Positions 10,708-38,261 of a stretch of 64,000 bases of DNA are shown piece by piece. Where the stretch lies: the NCBI RefSeq assembly GCF_054482525.1, contig NZ_CM137006.1. The stretch is one strand, 5' to 3'. The notes below the pieces were generated by a model. That model was not told the DNA's origin, did not search any database, and saw nothing but the letters and a program-made list of their open reading frames with translations. Both the position numbers and the translations under genes were made by a program. Position 1 is the stretch's first letter; each line of letters opens with the position of its first letter.

Positions 10708-12816
10708 TCAGTACTCTCTCATATCCGGCGTATCCTGCTTTTCATCAGGGGTCTTCGGTGGGGATTTCGAGGCTGCACAGTTCCAGTTAATCAACAGTGA
10801 GTCACCATTAACCTGCTCCTTACCCTGCAAATGAATTTTTGTGCCGTTGAGAAAAATTTGTCCGTCCTTAGTCAGCACCAGCCTTGCCTTACCACAGCAG
10901 AGTTCCAGATGCTCACCGCCGGAGTAAATCGCGGTCTGCCCGGTATCATCCTTTTTCGTTTTACCAACGGTGAAGGTAACGTTATTTCCGACTTTGACGT
11001 CATAACCCAGCCCGACCATCAACGATTTATGCAAACCGATCTGCGAGGACTGCATCAGGGCCACCGAGGTGTTCATAATGCCACCTACCGTCGTCTGATA
11101 CGCCACGCCCACAGTCAGCGCACGAACAAGTCCAATCGTTTCCACCTGAACAGAGCCCACTTTAATGATCTGGTTACTGCCCACCGTCTCTATCTGGTTA
11201 ACACCCACCGTCTGTATCTGATTGTTGGTAACCGCAATCATCTGATTGTTGCCAATGGTCTCAGCATGGTTGTTTATCACATCCGTGGTGCGGTTATTCA
11301 GCACCTCGGTGTTCATGTTCTTCTGCGCGTGGATGTAGACCTGTTCTTTCCCTGTCGCATCGTCAAACTTCAGTTCATTAAACCCGCTGCCCTTATAGGT
11401 TTTCGAACGAATGGTCATCTGCGTCTTTGTTCCCGGCAGGCTGCCGGGGGTGCGGTTTTCCTGGTGGTAGGTACGCCCCATAATAATCGGCTGGTCCGGA
11501 TCGCCGTTGAGGAAGTCCACAATGACTTCCTGACCCACACGCGGTATCGCCAGGTTGCCAAAGCCGGTGCCTGCCCACGCCTGTGCCACACGGATCCAGC
11601 ATGAACTGTCCTGGTTTGACGGGTTATAGCGGTCCCAGTTAAATTTCACCCGCACGCGGCCATGTTCATCACAGAAGATTTCTTCTCCTGCCGGTCCCGT
11701 CACGACGGCGCTCTGCGGGCCGTCCACCAGCGGTTTCAGCAACGGCTGTGGCCGCCATGTTCTGTCTGCCGGTATTACCGCAAAGTGGTTATTCAGCGTG
11801 GTACCTGAACCCCTGCGTCCCGGCACCGCCTGCGGCTGCTCGCCGTGCAGTTCACTTGCCACCACCTGCCATTCCCGGTTCAGGTTCGCCTGCGGATGCC
11901 CCGTCAGCGCAATTCGCCGTCCCGGCCATATCTCCGGCGAACGGCTTGTTCCGCGCGCCACTTCTGCGTTGTTTCGCCAGCCATCCATCTGCCAGCAGGC
12001 AAAGTTCTGCCCGTGGGCACCCTTGAAACGTCCGGGGTAGTCATACACTTCATACTGTGTGCGCTGGTAATCCTGGTGCTGGCCTTCCTGATCAAAACGC
12101 CCTGCCCAGCCGGGTCGTTTAAAGGTGTAGTCTTTGGTCACCACGGAAGATGGGCGGATTTGTGCGCTGTAGAGGAACTGGCTGATGCATAGGGTGCTCA
12201 CCTCGGTACGGGTGTTCGGATTCCAGGGGATCTCAAAGGACTCCGGCAGATAACGCACGGTGTCGCACAGGACCAGGCTCTGGTCGGTACTTTTTTGCGC
12301 GTGCTCCTCATAAAAGAAGATGCCTTCCTCCGCCGCCATCCGGCACAGGAAATCGTAATCGGTTTCGCCGTACTGGACACAAAACTCACGGGAAGGATGC
12401 GGCTCGCTGAACAGCGGACTCCACTCGGTCACCCCGTTTTCTTTCAGGATCGTCGCGAGTATGCTTTCGATGTCCTCATTCTGGAAGATACGGAAGTTCT
12501 GGCGCAGCCCTGTGCGCCACAGCGGTGGGCACACCTTCATGCTGTACAGCATCTGGTTTTTGTCGTTCTCCCCCAGTTCAAACCAGGTCACCACACCTTT
12601 CACCCGGCGCTGTACGTCATCGCCCTGCCATACCGTCAGGTAGGCCATTTTGTCCAGCACCTGCGCAAATTCAAGGGAGAGAAACTGCTGGCTGACCAGA
12701 GAGAGATCGAGGGAAAAGAGCGAAGAGAGTGACTGGTTCAGATGAAAGGAGACCACCGCAAACGCGTCCGGTGGCAGGCCGTCCACTTCCAGCGTGAAAC
12801 GTAATCCGGTTGACAT
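10708..12816 (-). CDS. vgrG: T6SS spike protein VgrG (TssI), 702 aa
   Basis: Translation MSTGLRFTLEVDGLPPDAFAVVSF... with a gp27/gp5-like body and a C-terminal beta-helix repeat region (VGNNQ..., TVG repeats). Located between hcp and rhs. Confidence 0.9.
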   Translation of the reverse strand: MSTGLRFTLEVDGLPPDAFAVVSFHLNQSLSSLFSLDLSLVSQQFLSLEFAQVLDKMAYLTVWQGDDVQRRVKGVVTWFELGENDKNQMLYSMKVCPPLWRTGLRQNFRIFQNEDIESILATILKENGVTEWSPLFSEPHPSREFCVQYGETDYDFLCRMAAEEGIFFYEEHAQKSTDQSLVLCDTVRYLPESFEIPWNPNTRTEVSTLCISQFLYSAQIRPSSVVTKDYTFKRPGWAGRFDQEGQHQDYQRTQYEVYDYPGRFKGAHGQNFACWQMDGWRNNAEVARGTSRSPEIWPGRRIALTGHPQANLNREWQVVASELHGEQPQAVPGRRGSGTTLNNHFAVIPADRTWRPQPLLKPLVDGPQSAVVTGPAGEEIFCDEHGRVRVKFNWDRYNPSNQDSSCWIRVAQAWAGTGFGNLAIPRVGQEVIVDFLNGDPDQPIIMGRTYHQENRTPGSLPGTKTQMTIRSKTYKGSGFNELKFDDATGKEQVYIHAQKNMNTEVLNNRTTDVINNHAETIGNNQMIAVTNNQIQTVGVNQIETVGSNQIIKVGSVQVETIGLVRALTVGVAYQTTVGGIMNTSVALMQSSQIGLHKSLMVGLGYDVKVGNNVTFTVGKTKKDDTGQTAIYSGGEHLELCCGKARLVLTKDGQIFLNGTKIHLQGKEQVNGDSLLINWNCAASKSPPKTPDEKQDTPDMREY

Positions 12817-12980
12817 AGCAACCTCCGGGTTTAAGGAAAAACAGACAGTTCGCTGTTAAAGCGGCTGTAACAGTACAGTGTTACGCTTGCGTTCAGGCAC
12901 GCTACCGCCGAAGTTTCCGGCATCCGCCATCTCCCGTGAACGTAACCCCTTACTGACAACCTTTCTTTTTACGGCGTAAT

Positions 12981-13015
12981 ACAAAAACAGCATCCGGCCT
13001 AATAGCCGGATGCTG
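12981..13015 (-). terminator. Intrinsic terminator/attenuator hairpin between hcp and vgrG
   Basis: 10-bp perfect stem CAGCATCCGG / CCGGATGCTG (12988-12997 and 13006-13015) with an 8-nt loop. On the minus strand it is followed by a T run (plus-strand A run 12983-12987). Lies just 3' of the hcp stop. Confidence 0.5.
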
Positions 13016-13025
13016 TTGGCTTAAC

Positions 13026-13544
13026 TTATGCTTCCAGCGGTGCGCGCCAGTCGTCGGCACCGGAGGTGCCAGACTTGACGTGTTCCCACTCTATTTTGCG
13101 GTAGGCCAGTGAAACTTCGAGCAACTGGGTGAACTCGCGTTTCGCCGGATCCTGGCAATGCGGCATATGCAGTTTCATATCGACAATCGTCGAATCGGTC
13201 AGGCGGGTGGTGAAATAATGCTCCTGTTTGCCTTCCACAGAGGTACGCCACCAGTGAAGTTCAGTGGTTGGCAGCATTTCGCCGGAGGCCAGTGCGTTGT
13301 ACATCAGCGGAACAGCTTTGTTCAGCGCCACGGTAAAAATGAACGGCTTGTGAGCACGCTGACCCGCAGGCTGGCCGGACTGAGGATCGGTCGGGACAGT
13401 AACGTTATGCAGGAATTCCTGCACCAGCATCTCGTCTTCGTGCCCCTGCACATAGATGTTGCCGACAGAATCAGCGGTAAATGCACCTGCAGTAATATTT
13501 CCCTGGGTCTGACCTGTGATGGAGATATAACACGGTGTTGGCAT
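13026..13544 (-). CDS. hcp: T6SS tube protein Hcp (TssD), 172 aa
   Basis: MPTPCYISITGQTQGNITAGAFTADSVGN... is a typical Hcp N-terminus. Strong RBS (AAGGAG) upstream. Confidence 0.9.
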   Translation of the reverse strand: MPTPCYISITGQTQGNITAGAFTADSVGNIYVQGHEDEMLVQEFLHNVTVPTDPQSGQPAGQRAHKPFIFTVALNKAVPLMYNALASGEMLPTTELHWWRTSVEGKQEHYFTTRLTDSTIVDMKLHMPHCQDPAKREFTQLLEVSLAYRKIEWEHVKSGTSGADDWRAPLEA

Positions 13545-33626: not shown

Positions 33627-34979
33627 ATGAATAGTAACGGACTGACACAAACTATCGTTACCGGCAGTGACCCGCGCGGGTTGCCGGAATTCAGCGCCAT
33701 CCGCGAGGAAATAAACAAAGCCAGCCATCCGTCACAGCCTGAGCTGAACTGGAAACTGGTGGAGTCGCTGGCGCTGGCGATTTTTAAAGCCAACGGTGTG
33801 GATTTACACACCGCCACCTACTATACGCTTGCCCGGACACGGACACAGGGACTGGCGGGATTCTGCGAAGGTGCGGAACTGCTGGCGGCAATGGTAAGCC
33901 ACGACTGGGATAAATTCTGGCCGCAGGGCGGTCCGGCGCGTACTGAAATGCTGGACTGGTTTAACTCCCGAACCGGCAATATTCTGCGTCAGCAAATCTC
34001 CTTTGCGGAACCCGATCTGCCACTGATCTACCGCACAGAGCGGGCATTGCAGCTTATCTGCGACAAGCTTCAGCAGGTGGAGCTGAAGCGCGTTCCGCGC
34101 GTGGAGAATCTGCTCTATTTTATGCAGAACACGCGTAAGCGGCTTGAACCCCAGCCGAAGAGTAACGTTGAAAACGCCGTACAGACCACGGTTAGAACAC
34201 TGATTTATGCCCCGGAAACAACGGCTTCCTCCACGCCAGAAGCGGTAGTGCCTCCCCTGCCCGACCTGCCTGAGATGAAAGTAGAAGTGCGCAGTCTGTC
34301 AGAGAATCCCCCACAGGCCAGTGTGATGAAGCAAGGCAGTACGGTAAGAGGGTTTATCACGGGGATCGCCTGTTCAGTGGCTGTCGCCTCAGCATTGTGG
34401 TGGTGGCAGGTCTATCCGGTGCAACAGCAACTGTTACAGGTTAACGACACCGCGCAGGGCGCAGCAACGGTGTGGATGGCCTCACCTGAACTAGAAAACT
34501 ATGAGCGCAGGCTGCAACAGCTTCTTGGCGTCTCCCCGGTACAACCGCTGGAAACCGGGATGCAGATGATGCGTGTTGCCGACAGTCGCTGGCCGGAAAG
34601 CCTGCAGCAGCAGCAGGCCTCGACACATTGGAATGAAGCACTCAAAACCCGCGCACAGAGTAGCCCGCAGTTGCGTGGCTGGTTGCAGACCCGTCAGGAC
34701 TTACATGCTTTTGCAGATCTCGTGATGCGGCGCGAGAAAGAGGGACTAACCCTTTCCTATATCAAAAATGTCATCTGGCAGGCGGAGCGGGGACTGGGGC
34801 AGGAAACACCCGTTGAGTCTCTGTTGACGCAGTACCAGGATGCCCGTGCGCAGAAGCAGAATATAGATGCGCTGGAAAAACAAATTAATGAGCGACTCGA
34901 AGGCGTGTTAATCCGCTGGCTGCTGCTGAAGAATAACGTCATGCCAGAGGCGGCAACCGGGACCACGGCCGAAAAATAA
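33627..34979 (+). CDS. T6SS accessory protein, VasL-like, 450 aa
   Basis: Start ATG 33627 (MNSNGLTQ...) with RBS GAGGAGG. Internal transmembrane helix (ITGIACSVAVASALWWW). Position after tssM matches vasL. Confidence 0.55.
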   Translation: MNSNGLTQTIVTGSDPRGLPEFSAIREEINKASHPSQPELNWKLVESLALAIFKANGVDLHTATYYTLARTRTQGLAGFCEGAELLAAMVSHDWDKFWPQGGPARTEMLDWFNSRTGNILRQQISFAEPDLPLIYRTERALQLICDKLQQVELKRVPRVENLLYFMQNTRKRLEPQPKSNVENAVQTTVRTLIYAPETTASSTPEAVVPPLPDLPEMKVEVRSLSENPPQASVMKQGSTVRGFITGIACSVAVASALWWWQVYPVQQQLLQVNDTAQGAATVWMASPELENYERRLQQLLGVSPVQPLETGMQMMRVADSRWPESLQQQQASTHWNEALKTRAQSSPQLRGWLQTRQDLHAFADLVMRREKEGLTLSYIKNVIWQAERGLGQETPVESLLTQYQDARAQKQNIDALEKQINERLEGVLIRWLLLKNNVMPEAATGTTAEK

Positions 34980-35002
34980 TTATTTAATTAAAGGAGATTA
35001 TC

Positions 35003-35485
35003 ATGGCAAATATGAGTTATTTATCTTTGAGTGGAGAGACACAAGGGCTGATTTCAGCAGGTTGCTCAACGCTTGATTCTGTCGGAAACAAAGCACAGCC
35101 AGAACATAAAGATCAGATCATGGTTTATGCGTTAATGCATTCCATCTCAAGAAGTCAAAATGTCAATCATCATGAATTAATTATCACCAAACCGGTTGAT
35201 AAATCCTCACCATTGCTGGCAAAAGCACTTAGTGACAATGAAAAAATGGTAACATGTGAATTTATACTCTACCGAACCAGTAAAGCGGGTATTTACCAGC
35301 CTTATTATAAAATAAACCTGTCAAAAGCCCGAATATCAAGTATTGATTTTGTCACACCGCATGCTGTCCTGGAAAAAGAACTGGAGCCACAGGAGAGAAT
35401 TGCCTTTATTTATGAAGATATTTCCTGGGAGCATACGTTAGCCGGTACGAATGCAATGAGTAAATGGCAGGATCGTGTACAGTAA
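35003..35485 (+). CDS. hcp: Second Hcp-family protein (TssD paralogue), 160 aa
   Basis: MANMSYLSLSGETQGLISAGCSTLDSVGN... parallels the hcp at 13026..13544 (MPTPCYISITGQTQGNITAGAFTADSVGN). Located at the distal end of the cluster. Confidence 0.8.
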   Translation: MANMSYLSLSGETQGLISAGCSTLDSVGNKAQPEHKDQIMVYALMHSISRSQNVNHHELIITKPVDKSSPLLAKALSDNEKMVTCEFILYRTSKAGIYQPYYKINLSKARISSIDFVTPHAVLEKELEPQERIAFIYEDISWEHTLAGTNAMSKWQDRVQ

Positions 35486-35528
35486 TTTACTGTAATAACA
35501 TAATAAATTACTATTGCGGAGAGATATA

Positions 35529-36443
35529 ATGGCTGGTTTAAGGAATAATAACAACACACAGAATGCACAGTGGGCTGATTATGTGGGTGACATTCTTCGG
35601 GGGGCTCAACCGATAAACCAGCTAGTACCTCAGCACCCTTATCTTAACGACGTCCCACTCATTGATGAATTAAGGCGTCAGAACACTCATCATGTTATTC
35701 TCTTGACACTTGATGTTGCAAAAAAAATACTCAGCTCAATAACATCATTTGATTACATTCATTTTATCACTACACATCCTTCAGGTATAAAAGATACACT
35801 CGCTTGGTTAGTTAACGCGGGTAAATTAATGACTGAGTTTGATGGAAATGGGAAAATTATATTTAACTTTAATACCTTAAAGTATACAAAAGCAAGTTAC
35901 TTTGAAATACTTGGAGAGAAATATATAAAAATTACAACATCCAGCCCCTGGCTTTTAGAAAAGCTCGGTAAATATATTTTCTCTTCACGAGCGCCTCAAG
36001 TTCTGGAACTCGCTATTGGCTGGCGAGGAGTTTTATCTGAATCAATAAAAGGAGTTAAGTTCTGTATCTGGTTTTCAGTAGCCTGGAGAACCATAGAATT
36101 TATTATGAGTTCAGAGCGAGATCTGGTTAATTTTCTTGGTGATTTTTCAATGGATGTGGCCAAAGCAGTGATTGCAGGCGGTGTTGCAACTGCTATTGGA
36201 AGCCTGGCTTCTTTTGCCTGTCTTAGTTTTGGCCTTCCAGTAATTCTTGTAGGAGGAGCAATTTTACTTACAGGGATAGTGTGTACAGTTGTTTTAAATG
36301 AAATCGATGCTCAATACCATTTATCAGAAAAATTAAAAGATGCAATTAGAGATGGACTAAAACGGCAACAGGAACTTGATAAATGGAAAAGGGAAAACAT
36401 GACTCCATTTATGTATGTTCTTAACACTCCCCCCGTGATATGA
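35529..36443 (+). CDS. Putative Hcp-associated T6SS effector with C-terminal glycine-zipper membrane region, 304 aa
   Basis: AT-rich ORF directly after hcp. ATG 35529 preceded by GGAGAG; the track start 35514 is TTG. C-terminal hydrophobic, Gly/Ala-rich segment AVIAGGVATAIGSLASFACLSFGLPVILVGGAILLTGIV. No catalytic motif recognised. Confidence 0.45.
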   Translation: MAGLRNNNNTQNAQWADYVGDILRGAQPINQLVPQHPYLNDVPLIDELRRQNTHHVILLTLDVAKKILSSITSFDYIHFITTHPSGIKDTLAWLVNAGKLMTEFDGNGKIIFNFNTLKYTKASYFEILGEKYIKITTSSPWLLEKLGKYIFSSRAPQVLELAIGWRGVLSESIKGVKFCIWFSVAWRTIEFIMSSERDLVNFLGDFSMDVAKAVIAGGVATAIGSLASFACLSFGLPVILVGGAILLTGIVCTVVLNEIDAQYHLSEKLKDAIRDGLKRQQELDKWKRENMTPFMYVLNTPPVI

Positions 36444-36452
36444 GGATTAACT

Positions 36453-36920
36453 ATGCGTTTACATGTTAAATTGAAAGAGTTTTTTTCGATGTTTTTTATA
36501 GCCATATTATTTTTCCCTGCATTCAATGCTTCTTTATTTTTTACCGGAATTAAACCTCTATATTCAATAATAAAAGGCTCCACGGAAATATTTTATGATT
36601 GGAGAATGTTGATTCTATGCTTCGGTTTCATATCGTTTTCCTTGTTAAATATTCATGTAATTTTACTAACAATAATAAAATCATTCTTAATAAAAAAAAC
36701 AAAGGTAATCAATTTCGCCACAGACATAACAATACAGCTAACTCTTATATTTTTACTAATAGCTATCGTAATAGCACCTTTAATAGCTCCTTTTGTCACA
36801 GGATATGTCAATGCTAATTATCACCCCTGCGGTAATAACACGGGGATTTTCCCAGGAGCAATCTATATTAAAAATGGCATAAAATGTAATAATGAACATA
36901 TTTCTCGCAAGGAAGATTAA
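36453..36920 (+). CDS. ykfM: Small multi-pass inner-membrane protein, putative cognate immunity protein; probable ykfM orthologue
   Basis: AT-rich 155-aa ORF with about four hydrophobic helices, directly after the effector-like gene and next to yafT on the opposite strand. In K-12 ykfM (about 159 aa membrane protein) holds that position, recalled from memory. Confidence 0.5.
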   Translation: MRLHVKLKEFFSMFFIAILFFPAFNASLFFTGIKPLYSIIKGSTEIFYDWRMLILCFGFISFSLLNIHVILLTIIKSFLIKKTKVINFATDITIQLTLIFLLIAIVIAPLIAPFVTGYVNANYHPCGNNTGIFPGAIYIKNGIKCNNEHISRKED

Positions 36921-37033
36921 GCAGTTAAATAATTAAATATTCTAAAACAAACAGTTTTTAACGCCGGATTCCATGTCCTTTCTTGCACTGTCTTTGTCAG
37001 GAACAATTTCTTATGCAAAGAATTTTGTATTAT

Positions 37034-37057
37034 TGCCGCCAGAAATTCCTGGCGGCA
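37034..37057. terminator. Hairpin between convergent immunity-like gene and yafT
   Basis: 9-bp perfect stem TGCCGCCAG / CTGGCGGCA with 6-nt loop. Flanking T/A runs are weak. Confidence 0.3.
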
Positions 37058-37068
37058 GATATAATTTA

Positions 37069-37854
37069 TTATTGATAGCGGTTAACCAAATCTTTTACCA
37101 TCGCTTTATAGGTCTTTTGCTTAAGTTGTATGATTTGCTGCTCTGTCATATCAGTCGTACTGGCTTCATTCTTGCCGGGAAATGGTGGAAGCACTTTATA
37201 TTCATAATTCACCGGCGACCAGGCAGCCCACTCACCTGTAGCTACATCCACCAGCGTGAATCGCACCAGATAGCGCAGTGAGATTGTGTTAGTCAGTTTT
37301 TCATTTTTATAATCGGACCATACTGTTGATTTCAGTGCAGTGTCATATTTTCCTGTCTGCAACGTATCCTGGTAAACAATAATCGCTTTCTGATGGCCTT
37401 TTGCCGCCACAAAACGTAATGCCTGCATCCAGTTCATATTTTCGGCATCTACAACACCCAGACTTTCATCTTTGTTTTTGTCTTTATTACAAGTTACAGG
37501 TTTTTGCCTGTCAGGAATGCCAGAAAATGTGGCAACTGTATAATATTTTCTCATCTCCTCCTGCATAATGGTTTCCGGTGCGCGACTGCCAGACTGAACA
37601 AGTATAACGGGAGAATTAAGAGGTACACGAAACTCAACTCCTTCAAGCGCAGCTTGAATATCCTCCTCGGATACAGCCAGTGTGGTTTCATTACCATATA
37701 AATCTTTGTCTGTTAGTTGCTGGGGAACGTTTTTATTAATAGAACTTTGTGCGGTTTGAGTTTTTTTCTTTTTTTCATCAATAGGAGATTCAGAGGCACA
37801 TCCTGCAAGCAGCGAGAATAATACACATATACAACAAACCCTTCTTAAATTCAT
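37069..37854 (-). CDS. yafT: Lipoprotein YafT, 261 aa
   Basis: Signal peptide with lipobox LAGC ([19 protein letters not shown]). Position next to aspV as in K-12. Confidence 0.75.
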
Positions 37855-38184: not shown

Positions 38185-38261
38185 TGGCGGAACGGACGGG
38201 ACTCGAACCCGCGACCCCCTGCGTGACAGGCAGGTATTCTAACCGACTGAACTACCGCTCC
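38185..38261 (-). tRNA. aspV: tRNA-Asp (GUC)
   Basis: 77-nt reverse-complement match to E. coli tRNA-Asp (GGAGCGGTAGTTCAGTCGGTTAGAATACCTGCCTGTCACGCAGGGGGTCGCGGGTTCGAGTCCCGTCCGTTCCGCCA), recalled from memory. Confidence 0.95.

Follow-up and report, generated by a model that had tools for sequence, protein, structure and literature searches.

A tme-ykfM gene pair behind hcp in an Escherichia coli type VI secretion cluster as a predicted member of the Tme/Tmi family, with probable relics in K-12

In a 64,000-nucleotide stretch of Escherichia coli contig NZ_CM137006.1 (assembly GCF_054482525.1; hereafter, the window), a complete type VI secretion system (T6SS) cluster ends, 3′ of vasL, in a trio of genes on one strand, each with a good Shine-Dalgarno sequence: an hcp gene (35003..35485, +), a gene for a 304-aa protein (35529..36443, +) and a gene for a 155-aa protein (36453..36920, +). 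We consider it highly probable that the last two genes are the E. coli copy of the published Tme/Tmi effector-immunity family and that ykfM and yafU of E. coli K-12 descend from this same pair. In this family, Tme is a type VI membrane-disrupting effector that is paired with immunity proteins of the DUF1240 or DUF1240-like type, the Tmi (Fridman et al. 2020, PMC7046647). A previous inspection of the window from its letters only (the sequence-only reading) had described the layout as that of an Hcp-linked membrane-targeting effector with its immunity protein, which the predicted membership in Tme/Tmi supports. The same reading had supposed that the effector may be uncharacterised; it belongs instead to the Tme family, and a nearly identical protein was already published (PMC7046647). 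The identification was reached via neighbouring genes, because the DUF1240 genes downstream of the homologues in other genera led to the study of Fridman et al.

The 304-aa open reading frame (ORF), which is the full-length counterpart of K-12 yafU and which we call tme, starts at ATG 35529. This start is preceded by a GGAG Shine-Dalgarno sequence and is the one chosen by the Prokaryotic Genome Annotation Pipeline (PGAP); the mechanical ORF start is a TTG at 35514, five codons upstream, which gives 309 aa. PGAP assigns WP_000908071.1 to this ORF in a genome of 99.9% identity, and the window protein matches this product at 303 of 304 positions, with V168A as the single difference. Supplementary Data 5 of PMC7046647 includes WP_000908071.1 among the Tme-domain proteins (residues 122-277, E 1.3e-37) and gives an Hcp encoded 43 bp upstream and a 155-aa protein with three transmembrane (TM) segments encoded 9 bp downstream. 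Based on those boundaries, the Tme toxin domain is located at 35892..36359 (+) of the window.

The Tme domain has been defined as a C-terminal domain with an almost invariant DxxK motif, followed by a predicted TM helix that is flanked by another Asp (PMC7046647). In the window protein, the Tme-defining DxxK motif is D209-V-A-K212 (36153..36164, +), and it is followed by a hydrophobic helical hairpin of residues ~213-256, with Kyte-Doolittle maxima up to 2.7, which is closed by D260 (36165..36308, +). The hydrophobic block thus sits between K212 and D260. It includes the small-xxx-small run A216-A220-G224-S228 and is the glycine-zipper-like C-terminal block that had been pointed out from the letters. 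For WP_000908071.1, Phobius places a TM helix at residues 234-256 (PMC7046647, Supplementary Data 5). In an alignment of 52 diverse homologues, D209 and K212 were the sole invariant residues besides Met1, and D260 was conserved in at least 90% of them; D209 and K212 were also invariant in 10 close homologues. The N-terminus of the protein does not resemble a signal peptide.

The toxin has few close homologues, namely those of E. coli, of Salmonella (62%) and of Rahnella (39%). An exhaustive profile search retrieved 702 cluster representatives, which share a common region at profile positions ~120-280; the Tme core was always C-terminal in these proteins, whose length reached 839 aa. Matches in AFDB include PAAR-fused Vibrio proteins. 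Vibrio Tme1 was sought among the profile matches by cluster look-up, and the ten clusters sampled came from other taxa; because Tme1 was not among these ten, the link between the E. coli toxin and Tme1 relies on the table of PMC7046647 and on the motif. The 304-aa protein had no match in Pfam (best DUF6722, E 6.9), nothing significant in NCBIfam and, among PDB sequences, E values of 0.35-0.93; these searches detected no sequence relationship outside the Tme family. Similarity to known pore-forming folds, i.e., the colicin pore domain, alpha pore-forming toxins such as AhlB, VasX and Tse4/Ssp6, was not encountered either. The AlphaFold2 model of the protein contains helices at residues 199-234 and 238-263, with a predicted local distance difference test score (pLDDT) of ~68-86 by 10-residue block.

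The 155-aa gene, predicted to encode a three-helix inner-membrane DUF1240-like immunity protein (tmi), begins 9 bp downstream of tme and is preceded by a GAGG Shine-Dalgarno sequence. PGAP already names this gene ykfM in T6SS-positive strains; WP_001236629.1, one of the downstream 155-aa accessions in Supplementary Data 5 of PMC7046647, is called YkfM by PGAP in strain PCN033. The sequence-only reading had taken the product for a four-helix protein. We found three strong hydrophobic segments, centred near residues 21, 66 and 103, in agreement with the published Phobius topology i12-32o52-75i96-119o (PMC7046647, Supplementary Data 5). YkfM is related to the DUF1240 genes of other tme loci: its BLASTP comparison with the DUF1240 protein encoded downstream of the Salmonella tme homologue gave 50% identity (E 7e-48), and an hhalign comparison of the Escherichia YkfM profile with the DUF1240 proteins of other tme loci gave a probability of 97.3% (E 1.9e-11, 123 columns). 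Among nine aligned YkfM relatives, one reaches Pfam DUF1240 at E 1e-3. The family paper explicitly admits DUF1240-like members among the Tmi and describes proteins of 3-6 TM helices with an N-terminal helix anchor, encoded no more than 50 bp downstream of tme (PMC7046647); with three segments and a 9-bp gap, YkfM can be classed, on homology, as a DUF1240-like Tmi as defined in that paper. At the sequence level, the E. coli pair carries every hallmark of the Tme/Tmi family, including the association with the T6SS: a complete cluster ends here, and hcp lies 43 bp upstream of tme.

The C-terminal tail of YkfM, which is predicted to be periplasmic, contains the invariant residues Y123, C126, G131, Y138, K140 and C145. 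The Lys-rich loop at residues 76-85 would fit the cytoplasmic side, with the C-terminal tail facing the periplasm, and the two tail cysteines could form a disulfide. In the ykfM gene, a run of eight A residues (36692-36699; seven in K-12) encodes the Lys-rich loop directly after helix 2. In a screen reported in 2025, ykfM was hit by mutation more often than any other gene under three antibiotics, and the changes concentrated at a helix/cytoplasm boundary (PMC11742677). The slippage-prone homopolymer could explain this mutation hotspot without any role of ykfM in resistance.

The three genes form a compact and compositionally distinct unit. The gaps between hcp and tme (43 bp) and between tme and ykfM (9 bp) are as short as had been noticed at first sight. 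Likewise, the GC content of tme (0.38) and ykfM (0.30) is far below that of the T6SS core genes (tssM, vasL and others, ~0.54-0.60), as the sequence-only reading had stated for the pair; the hcp gene is AT-rich too (0.39), and the compositional unit is therefore the whole hcp-toxin-immunity trio, in which hcp groups with the two downstream genes, unlike the core. The genes are real and not chance ORFs, because they are conserved in ~2600-3000 complete E. coli genomes and their ratios of nonsynonymous to synonymous substitution rates (dN/dS) are below 1. The values were 0.19 for tme, 0.13 for tme residues 122-304 (the Tme domain plus the C-terminal tail), 0.29-0.32 for ykfM, where the comparison with the orphan copy of K-12 is included, and 0.26 for hcp, all of them resting on just 15-26 substitutions per gene.

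Two of the three K-12 genes that had been proposed as relics of this module, ykfM and yafU, are indeed derived from it by homology, and the third, yafF, is not. K-12 YkfM (159 aa) is the orthologue of the window 155-aa protein, with 93% aa identity, and its four additional residues come from a mutated stop codon. K-12 YafU corresponds to the C-terminal 112 residues (193-304) of the toxin, with 96% identity over these residues; RefSeq flags K-12 yafU as a pseudogene. The YafU stump keeps the DxxK motif and the hairpin, but its Tme domain is missing 71 residues at the N-terminal side. In a pairwise alignment with NC_000913 DNA, the left end of the K-12 homology, i.e., the deletion breakpoint, fell inside tme at ~36087. 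Consistently, in a megablast search with positions 34900-37100, the K-12-type match starts at query position 1188 and adjoins a sequence annotated as "ISAs1 family transposase". Everything to the left of ~36087 is missing in K-12, the T6SS included. The yafF gene is located on the other side of the K-12 breakpoint; because RefSeq annotates the matched sequence in K-12-type genomes as an ISAs1 family transposase fragment, yafF appears to be an insertion sequence (IS) scar at the deletion junction and not a relic of the module. Thus, an IS-associated deletion seems to have taken the T6SS from K-12, together with hcp and codons 1-192 of tme.

Considering the complete E. coli genomes, ykfM was found in 2997 of 5426 (coverage of at least 80%) and the 5′ half of tme in 2573 of 5426 (~47%). 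The difference between both numbers gives ~424 genomes with an orphan ykfM (~8%), a count inflated by the richness of RefSeq in K-12 derivatives; ~43% of the genomes have neither gene. The E. coli locus is represented by just two alleles, ~3% apart, and a "distant" blastn search for divergent toxin alleles in E. coli found essentially none. Two of the ~3100 matches of the tme-ykfM region are located on plasmids rather than on chromosomes. Additional states of T6SS decay that spare tme-ykfM were identified: strain EC21 has a 5′-truncated vasL followed by an intact hcp-tme-ykfM, and the match of strain XJ6.2 extends from window position ~35436 (the 3′ end of hcp) onward, so that tme-ykfM is kept without hcp. 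These two states are independent. The intact ykfM of K-12 is most likely an orphan immunity gene against a toxin that ~47% of E. coli still carry.

The names ykfM and yafU have been linked to these genes in databases before. In UniProt, "Inner membrane protein yafU" is already the name of full-length homologues in E. coli, Morganella and Serratia, and some Salmonella homologues are labelled "ImpA domain-containing protein"; none of the AFDB50 matches has a Tme annotation. The functional reading, i.e., an orphan Tmi and a Tme stump, was not found in print, and our literature search retrieved no paper that links ykfM or yafU to the T6SS. Studies of K-12 still handle ykfM as a gene of unknown role, and a 2025 paper guessed that it encodes a porin (PMC11742677).

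The mechanism that we propose follows that of the characterized family members. In V. parahaemolyticus, Tme1 and Tme2 are T6SS effectors whose secretion and killing activity are T6SS-dependent; they are toxic from the periplasm and not, or much less, from the cytoplasm, without causing lysis. Both collapse the membrane potential and admit propidium iodide, like VasX, and each is neutralised by its cognate Tmi alone (PMC7046647). By analogy, the T6SS would deliver the E. coli toxin to the periplasm of a nearby Gram-negative cell, where the toxin hairpin would insert into the inner membrane from the periplasmic side, dissipate the membrane potential and permeabilise the membrane without cell lysis. 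In the inner membrane of sister cells, YkfM would block the cognate toxin specifically, within the membrane. From the gene linkage, the toxin may be loaded via the adjacent Hcp subtype, for which its conserved N-terminal ~40 residues would probably be the recognition element.

The hcp gene of the trio is the last gene of the main T6SS operon. Its 160-aa product is matched by TIGR03344 (E 1e-60) over residues 1-157 and is therefore a plain TssD without C-terminal extension; a fusion of the Hcp-ET type, with a toxin domain at the Hcp C-terminus, is not present here, the toxin being a separate ORF. As had been noted at the outset, this is the second hcp of the window. The other one, which encodes 172 aa (13026-13544, -), adjoins vgrG and Rhs genes (1907-13544), and the two Hcps share 29% identity. 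In contrast to that value, the Hcps encoded beside the Salmonella and Rahnella tme homologues are 74% and 57% identical to the product of the window hcp at 35003-35485; the same Hcp subtype thus appears to travel with the toxin, and we presume that this Hcp is its carrier or chaperone. In the T6SS2 nomenclature of avian pathogenic E. coli (APEC), the main operon runs from vipA2 to hcp2A, with a divergent hcp2B-vgrG2 (PMC5874247), and by its position the hcp at 35003-35485 is hcp2A. The APEC T6SS2 cluster is repressed by H-NS (PMC5874247), and the AT-richness of the trio fits this repression.

The relatives of tme in other genera show a similar arrangement. A DUF1240 (PF06836) gene is located directly downstream of the tme homologue in four of four loci examined, i.e., those of Salmonella, Rahnella, Xenorhabdus and Kluyvera. 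In Salmonella enterica DALPDZ010000034.1 (5476-9010), hcp, tme and the DUF1240 gene lie between vasL and yafT and are followed by a truncated second-class tme of 169 aa, whose N-terminus is the same and whose body is different, a 43-aa ORF and a second DUF1240 gene. This locus is an orphan effector-immunity array of a kind that is not present in E. coli. The Rahnella locus (13 kb) contains a stand-alone hcp-tme-tmi module away from visible T6SS genes, and Xenorhabdus and Kluyvera carry stand-alone tme-DUF1240 pairs without T6SS neighbours.

An N-terminal motif, W..Y.GD.LRG..PINQL.PQH.Y, is located at residues ~14-38 of the E. coli toxin (35568..35642, +), and we regard it as the candidate loading or recognition region of this Enterobacterales subfamily. 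The motif is nearly identical between subfamilies that are otherwise ~36% identical, and it is kept in the Kluyvera, Xenorhabdus and Rahnella homologues. Additionally, it is present in short stand-alone ORFs (38-125 aa) of Yersinia pestis, Photorhabdus, Xenorhabdus, Serratia, Morganella and Providencia and, in a single case, as a fusion with DUF1240. We propose it as a loading determinant because, by analogy, Tme1 needs its N-terminus for secretion and this part also suffices for it (PMC10435454); it may equally be kept as a recombination anchor. The RIX of Tme1 is arginine-rich, occupies the N-terminal ~55 residues and has been reported only in Vibrionaceae and Moritellaceae (PMC10435454), and both this range and the different motif set the N-terminal 121 residues of the E. 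coli toxin apart from RIX. We also considered the N-terminus as a polymorphic-toxin delivery domain. This was unsupported, since the profile search with the motif, limited by its word index, retrieved fragments of at most 125 aa and the one DUF1240 fusion, and no alternative C-terminal toxins.

Several points weigh against the reading of the pair as an Hcp-delivered Tme effector with its Tmi. The dN/dS values come, as stated above, from few substitutions. The AlphaFold2 model of the toxin is just moderate (pLDDT 66.8), and fold searches with it returned generic helical hairpins, which leaves pore formation without independent support. YkfM has no Pfam DUF1240 (PF06836) match even at E 10, so its membership in the Tmi depends on transitive and profile-profile homology. 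Published experiments on secretion, toxicity or immunity of the E. coli pair were not found. Deletion of this hcp in PCN033, a porcine strain of extraintestinal pathogenic E. coli (ExPEC), caused no competition defect against K-12 W3110 (PMC4882540). As regards delivery, the Xenorhabdus and Kluyvera homologues have the same N-terminal motif and no adjacent hcp. A protein of 304 aa (34 kDa) is also a large cargo for the Hcp lumen.

The PCN033 result concerns the gene studied here. The "hcp1" of that strain has 483 bp, and its primer T3 matches the first 26 bases of the window hcp ORF (PMC4882540). Over the trio, the window is 100% identical to PCN033, except for ISVsa5 inside the 304-aa gene: in PCN033 (NZ_CP006632.1), tme is split by this IS4-like element at the window equivalent of ~36209, and ykfM is intact. 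As its tme is uninterrupted, the window stems from a close relative or from an IS-free version. Because the tme of PCN033 is IS-split and the prey W3110 carries ykfM, the competition data of the hcp knockout are uninformative, and we rejected them as evidence for or against Hcp-dependent killing.

Loading through the Hcp lumen, to which the gene linkage points, seems to us slightly favoured. The alternative is that the Tme/Tmi assignment stands and the toxin is delivered by the VgrG/PAAR spike or an adaptor, with the neighbouring hcp as a merely structural gene at the operon end. The absence of hcp beside the Xenorhabdus and Kluyvera homologues and the size of the toxin speak for it, as do the Tme family members fused to PAAR, VgrG or ImpA and the preference of the authors of the RIX study for spike over Hcp-lumen loading of RIX proteins such as Vibrio Tme1, for which they did not identify the platform (PMC10435454). 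Nevertheless, spike delivery has to account for the same divergent Hcp subtype beside the toxin in three genera, including one stand-alone hcp-tme-tmi module, for the Hcp upstream gene in the E. coli rows listed in PMC7046647 (Supplementary Data 5), and for a window vgrG whose partners, encoded on the opposite strand, are another hcp and an Rhs toxin; we hold it to be unlikely. A similar balance applies to K-12, where ykfM might be a neutral leftover of the deletion, with little or no expression and no protection, awaiting decay, so that "orphan immunity" would be only a historical label. The breakpoint and the ISAs1 scar are common to the K-12-type genomes sampled, and for this reason the many orphan copies, whose count is moreover inflated as described, may reflect one inherited event and not repeated selection. 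The altered K-12 stop codon points the same way, and no promoter stands out upstream of ykfM; the promoter scan, with 9 promoter-like sites versus 9.3 expected, i.e., chance level, was in itself uninformative. On the other hand, the K-12 ORF is intact and well conserved (dN/dS 0.32 with respect to the window allele), the decay states of EC21 and XJ6.2 also spare tme-ykfM, and a ykfM::Tn5 insertion in K-12 caused hyperlethality to nalidixic acid, mitomycin C and peroxide (PMC2824699). Because the insertion has phenotypes, ykfM is not silent in K-12. We regard the neutral leftover as somewhat unlikely, and marginally favour a K-12 YkfM that is protective.

Two further explanations deny the pair its role as T6SS cargo with immunity. 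The tme-DUF1240 pairs of Xenorhabdus and Kluyvera, together with the ykfM::Tn5 phenotypes in a T6SS-less strain that retains a YafU stump with DxxK and hairpin, would suit a self-contained membrane toxin/antidote or stress module, addiction- or holin-like, at the edge of the island. This is very improbable given that, in the family survey, a T6SS is present in 77% of the Tme genomes, and hcp and vgrG in 99.7%, ~70% of the tme genes are preceded by a T6SS-associated gene and some members are fused to PAAR, VgrG or MIX; that Tme1 and Tme2 depend on the T6SS; and that Tme1 is non-toxic from the cytoplasm, unlike a classical addiction module (PMC7046647). A PADLOC search for defence systems gave no match for the pair. 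Even less credible, to the point of being nearly negligible, is that both proteins are non-toxic membrane accessory parts of the T6SS-2 apparatus. Both are membrane proteins whose genes close a structural operon, behind tssM, vasL and hcp, but their composition is unlike that of the core genes, the pair occurs away from apparatus genes in other genera, ykfM is kept after the loss of the apparatus, and the extra immunity genes and truncated second toxin gene of Salmonella are typical of effector-immunity turnover.

Compared with Tme1/Tmi1 and Tme2/Tmi2 of V. parahaemolyticus, the E. coli pair has in common the C-terminal DxxK-TM helix-Asp domain, the lack of a signal peptide, the T6SS association and a DUF1240-like multi-helix membrane immunity gene directly downstream. 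It differs in that its upstream gene is hcp, its N-terminus carries an Enterobacterales-restricted motif and YkfM falls below the Pfam DUF1240 threshold. With the Hcp-dependent T6SS effectors that form pores or depolarise membranes, Tse4 of P. aeruginosa, Ssp6/Ssp4 of Serratia, VasX of V. cholerae and Tke5 of P. putida, it would share depolarisation of the inner membrane from the periplasmic side, expected by analogy, and a membrane immunity protein. Tse4 has glycine-zipper character and is Hcp-dependent. For Tke5, a disruption of ion homeostasis without considerable membrane damage has been described, whereas the Tme experiments report permeability to propidium iodide (PMC7046647). Hcp-ET of E. 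coli is also an hcp-linked antibacterial toxin with a downstream immunity gene; here, however, Hcp is a plain 160-aa TssD and the toxin is encoded by a separate gene. Orphan immunity genes and arrays are known from Rhs/CdiA orphan modules and the immunity islands of Bacteroidales. The K-12 ykfM kept without toxin or apparatus, the Salmonella array and the numerous short pieces of the tme N-terminus present in Yersinia, Photorhabdus and Serratia resemble them, whereas the E. coli locus is nearly monomorphic, with its two alleles, and is not a polymorphic array.

The pair is a known kind of system, already present in the supplement of PMC7046647 and ordinary for T6SS biology. The gain, a modest one in annotation, is that ykfM is read explicitly as an orphan Tmi and yafU as a Tme stump, which offers an evolutionary explanation for both K-12 genes, in a toxin family whose E. 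coli member is still labelled "hypothetical protein" in ~2600 complete genomes. Additionally, tme is nominated as a cargo for Hcp2A, for which no antibacterial cargo was described in the APEC study of 2018 (PMC5874247), and K-12 prey may mask this effector in competition assays. A bolder proposal, which we put forward tentatively and with some doubt, is that K-12 is natively immune via YkfM and that the N-terminal ~40 residues of the toxin are an undescribed signal for one Hcp subtype, the enterobacterial counterpart of RIX. If this were true, K-12 prey would be immune, and the Tme effector of about half of E. coli would be systematically invisible in assays with such prey; the ykfM phenotypes of K-12 (the stress hyperlethality and the position as top mutational target) could reflect a Tmi membrane protein and not a porin; and YkfM might restrain the residual YafU stump.

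To the right, the trio ends beside yafT (37069..37854, -), as had been described for the pair. This lipoprotein gene is the right-hand boundary common to the window and K-12, and it is followed by tRNA-Asp (aspV; 38185..38261, -; ARAGORN and K-12 annotation), the chromosomal landmark of the island, and then by dnaQ. A terminator-like GC-rich hairpin lies between the convergent ykfM and yafT (37033..37058, +); it comes from a consensus scan only, in which 2 such sites were found versus 1.4 expected, so it counts as weak evidence. Between the window and K-12, yafT has a synonymous divergence (dS) of 0.34 and 38 nonsynonymous changes, and its neighbours ykfM and dnaQ have dS values of 0.10 and 0.05, respectively. 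Because yafT is much more divergent than both neighbours, a recombination boundary or an allelic replacement at yafT is suggested. The naming of yafT in RefSeq is inconsistent (lipoprotein YafT, aminopeptidase, hypothetical).

At the other end of the window, two Rhs regions were identified at 1907-5855 (-) and 7096-10641 (-), with two small ORFs (162 and 149 aa, without a family match) between both Rhs genes. One of the genes, downstream of the divergent hcp-vgrG, is intact and encodes an Rhs core protein of 1181 aa. It is followed by the second, which is split over three ORFs of 524, 239 and 569 aa; these jointly cover the RHS core model, and the gene is thus pseudogenised or frameshifted.

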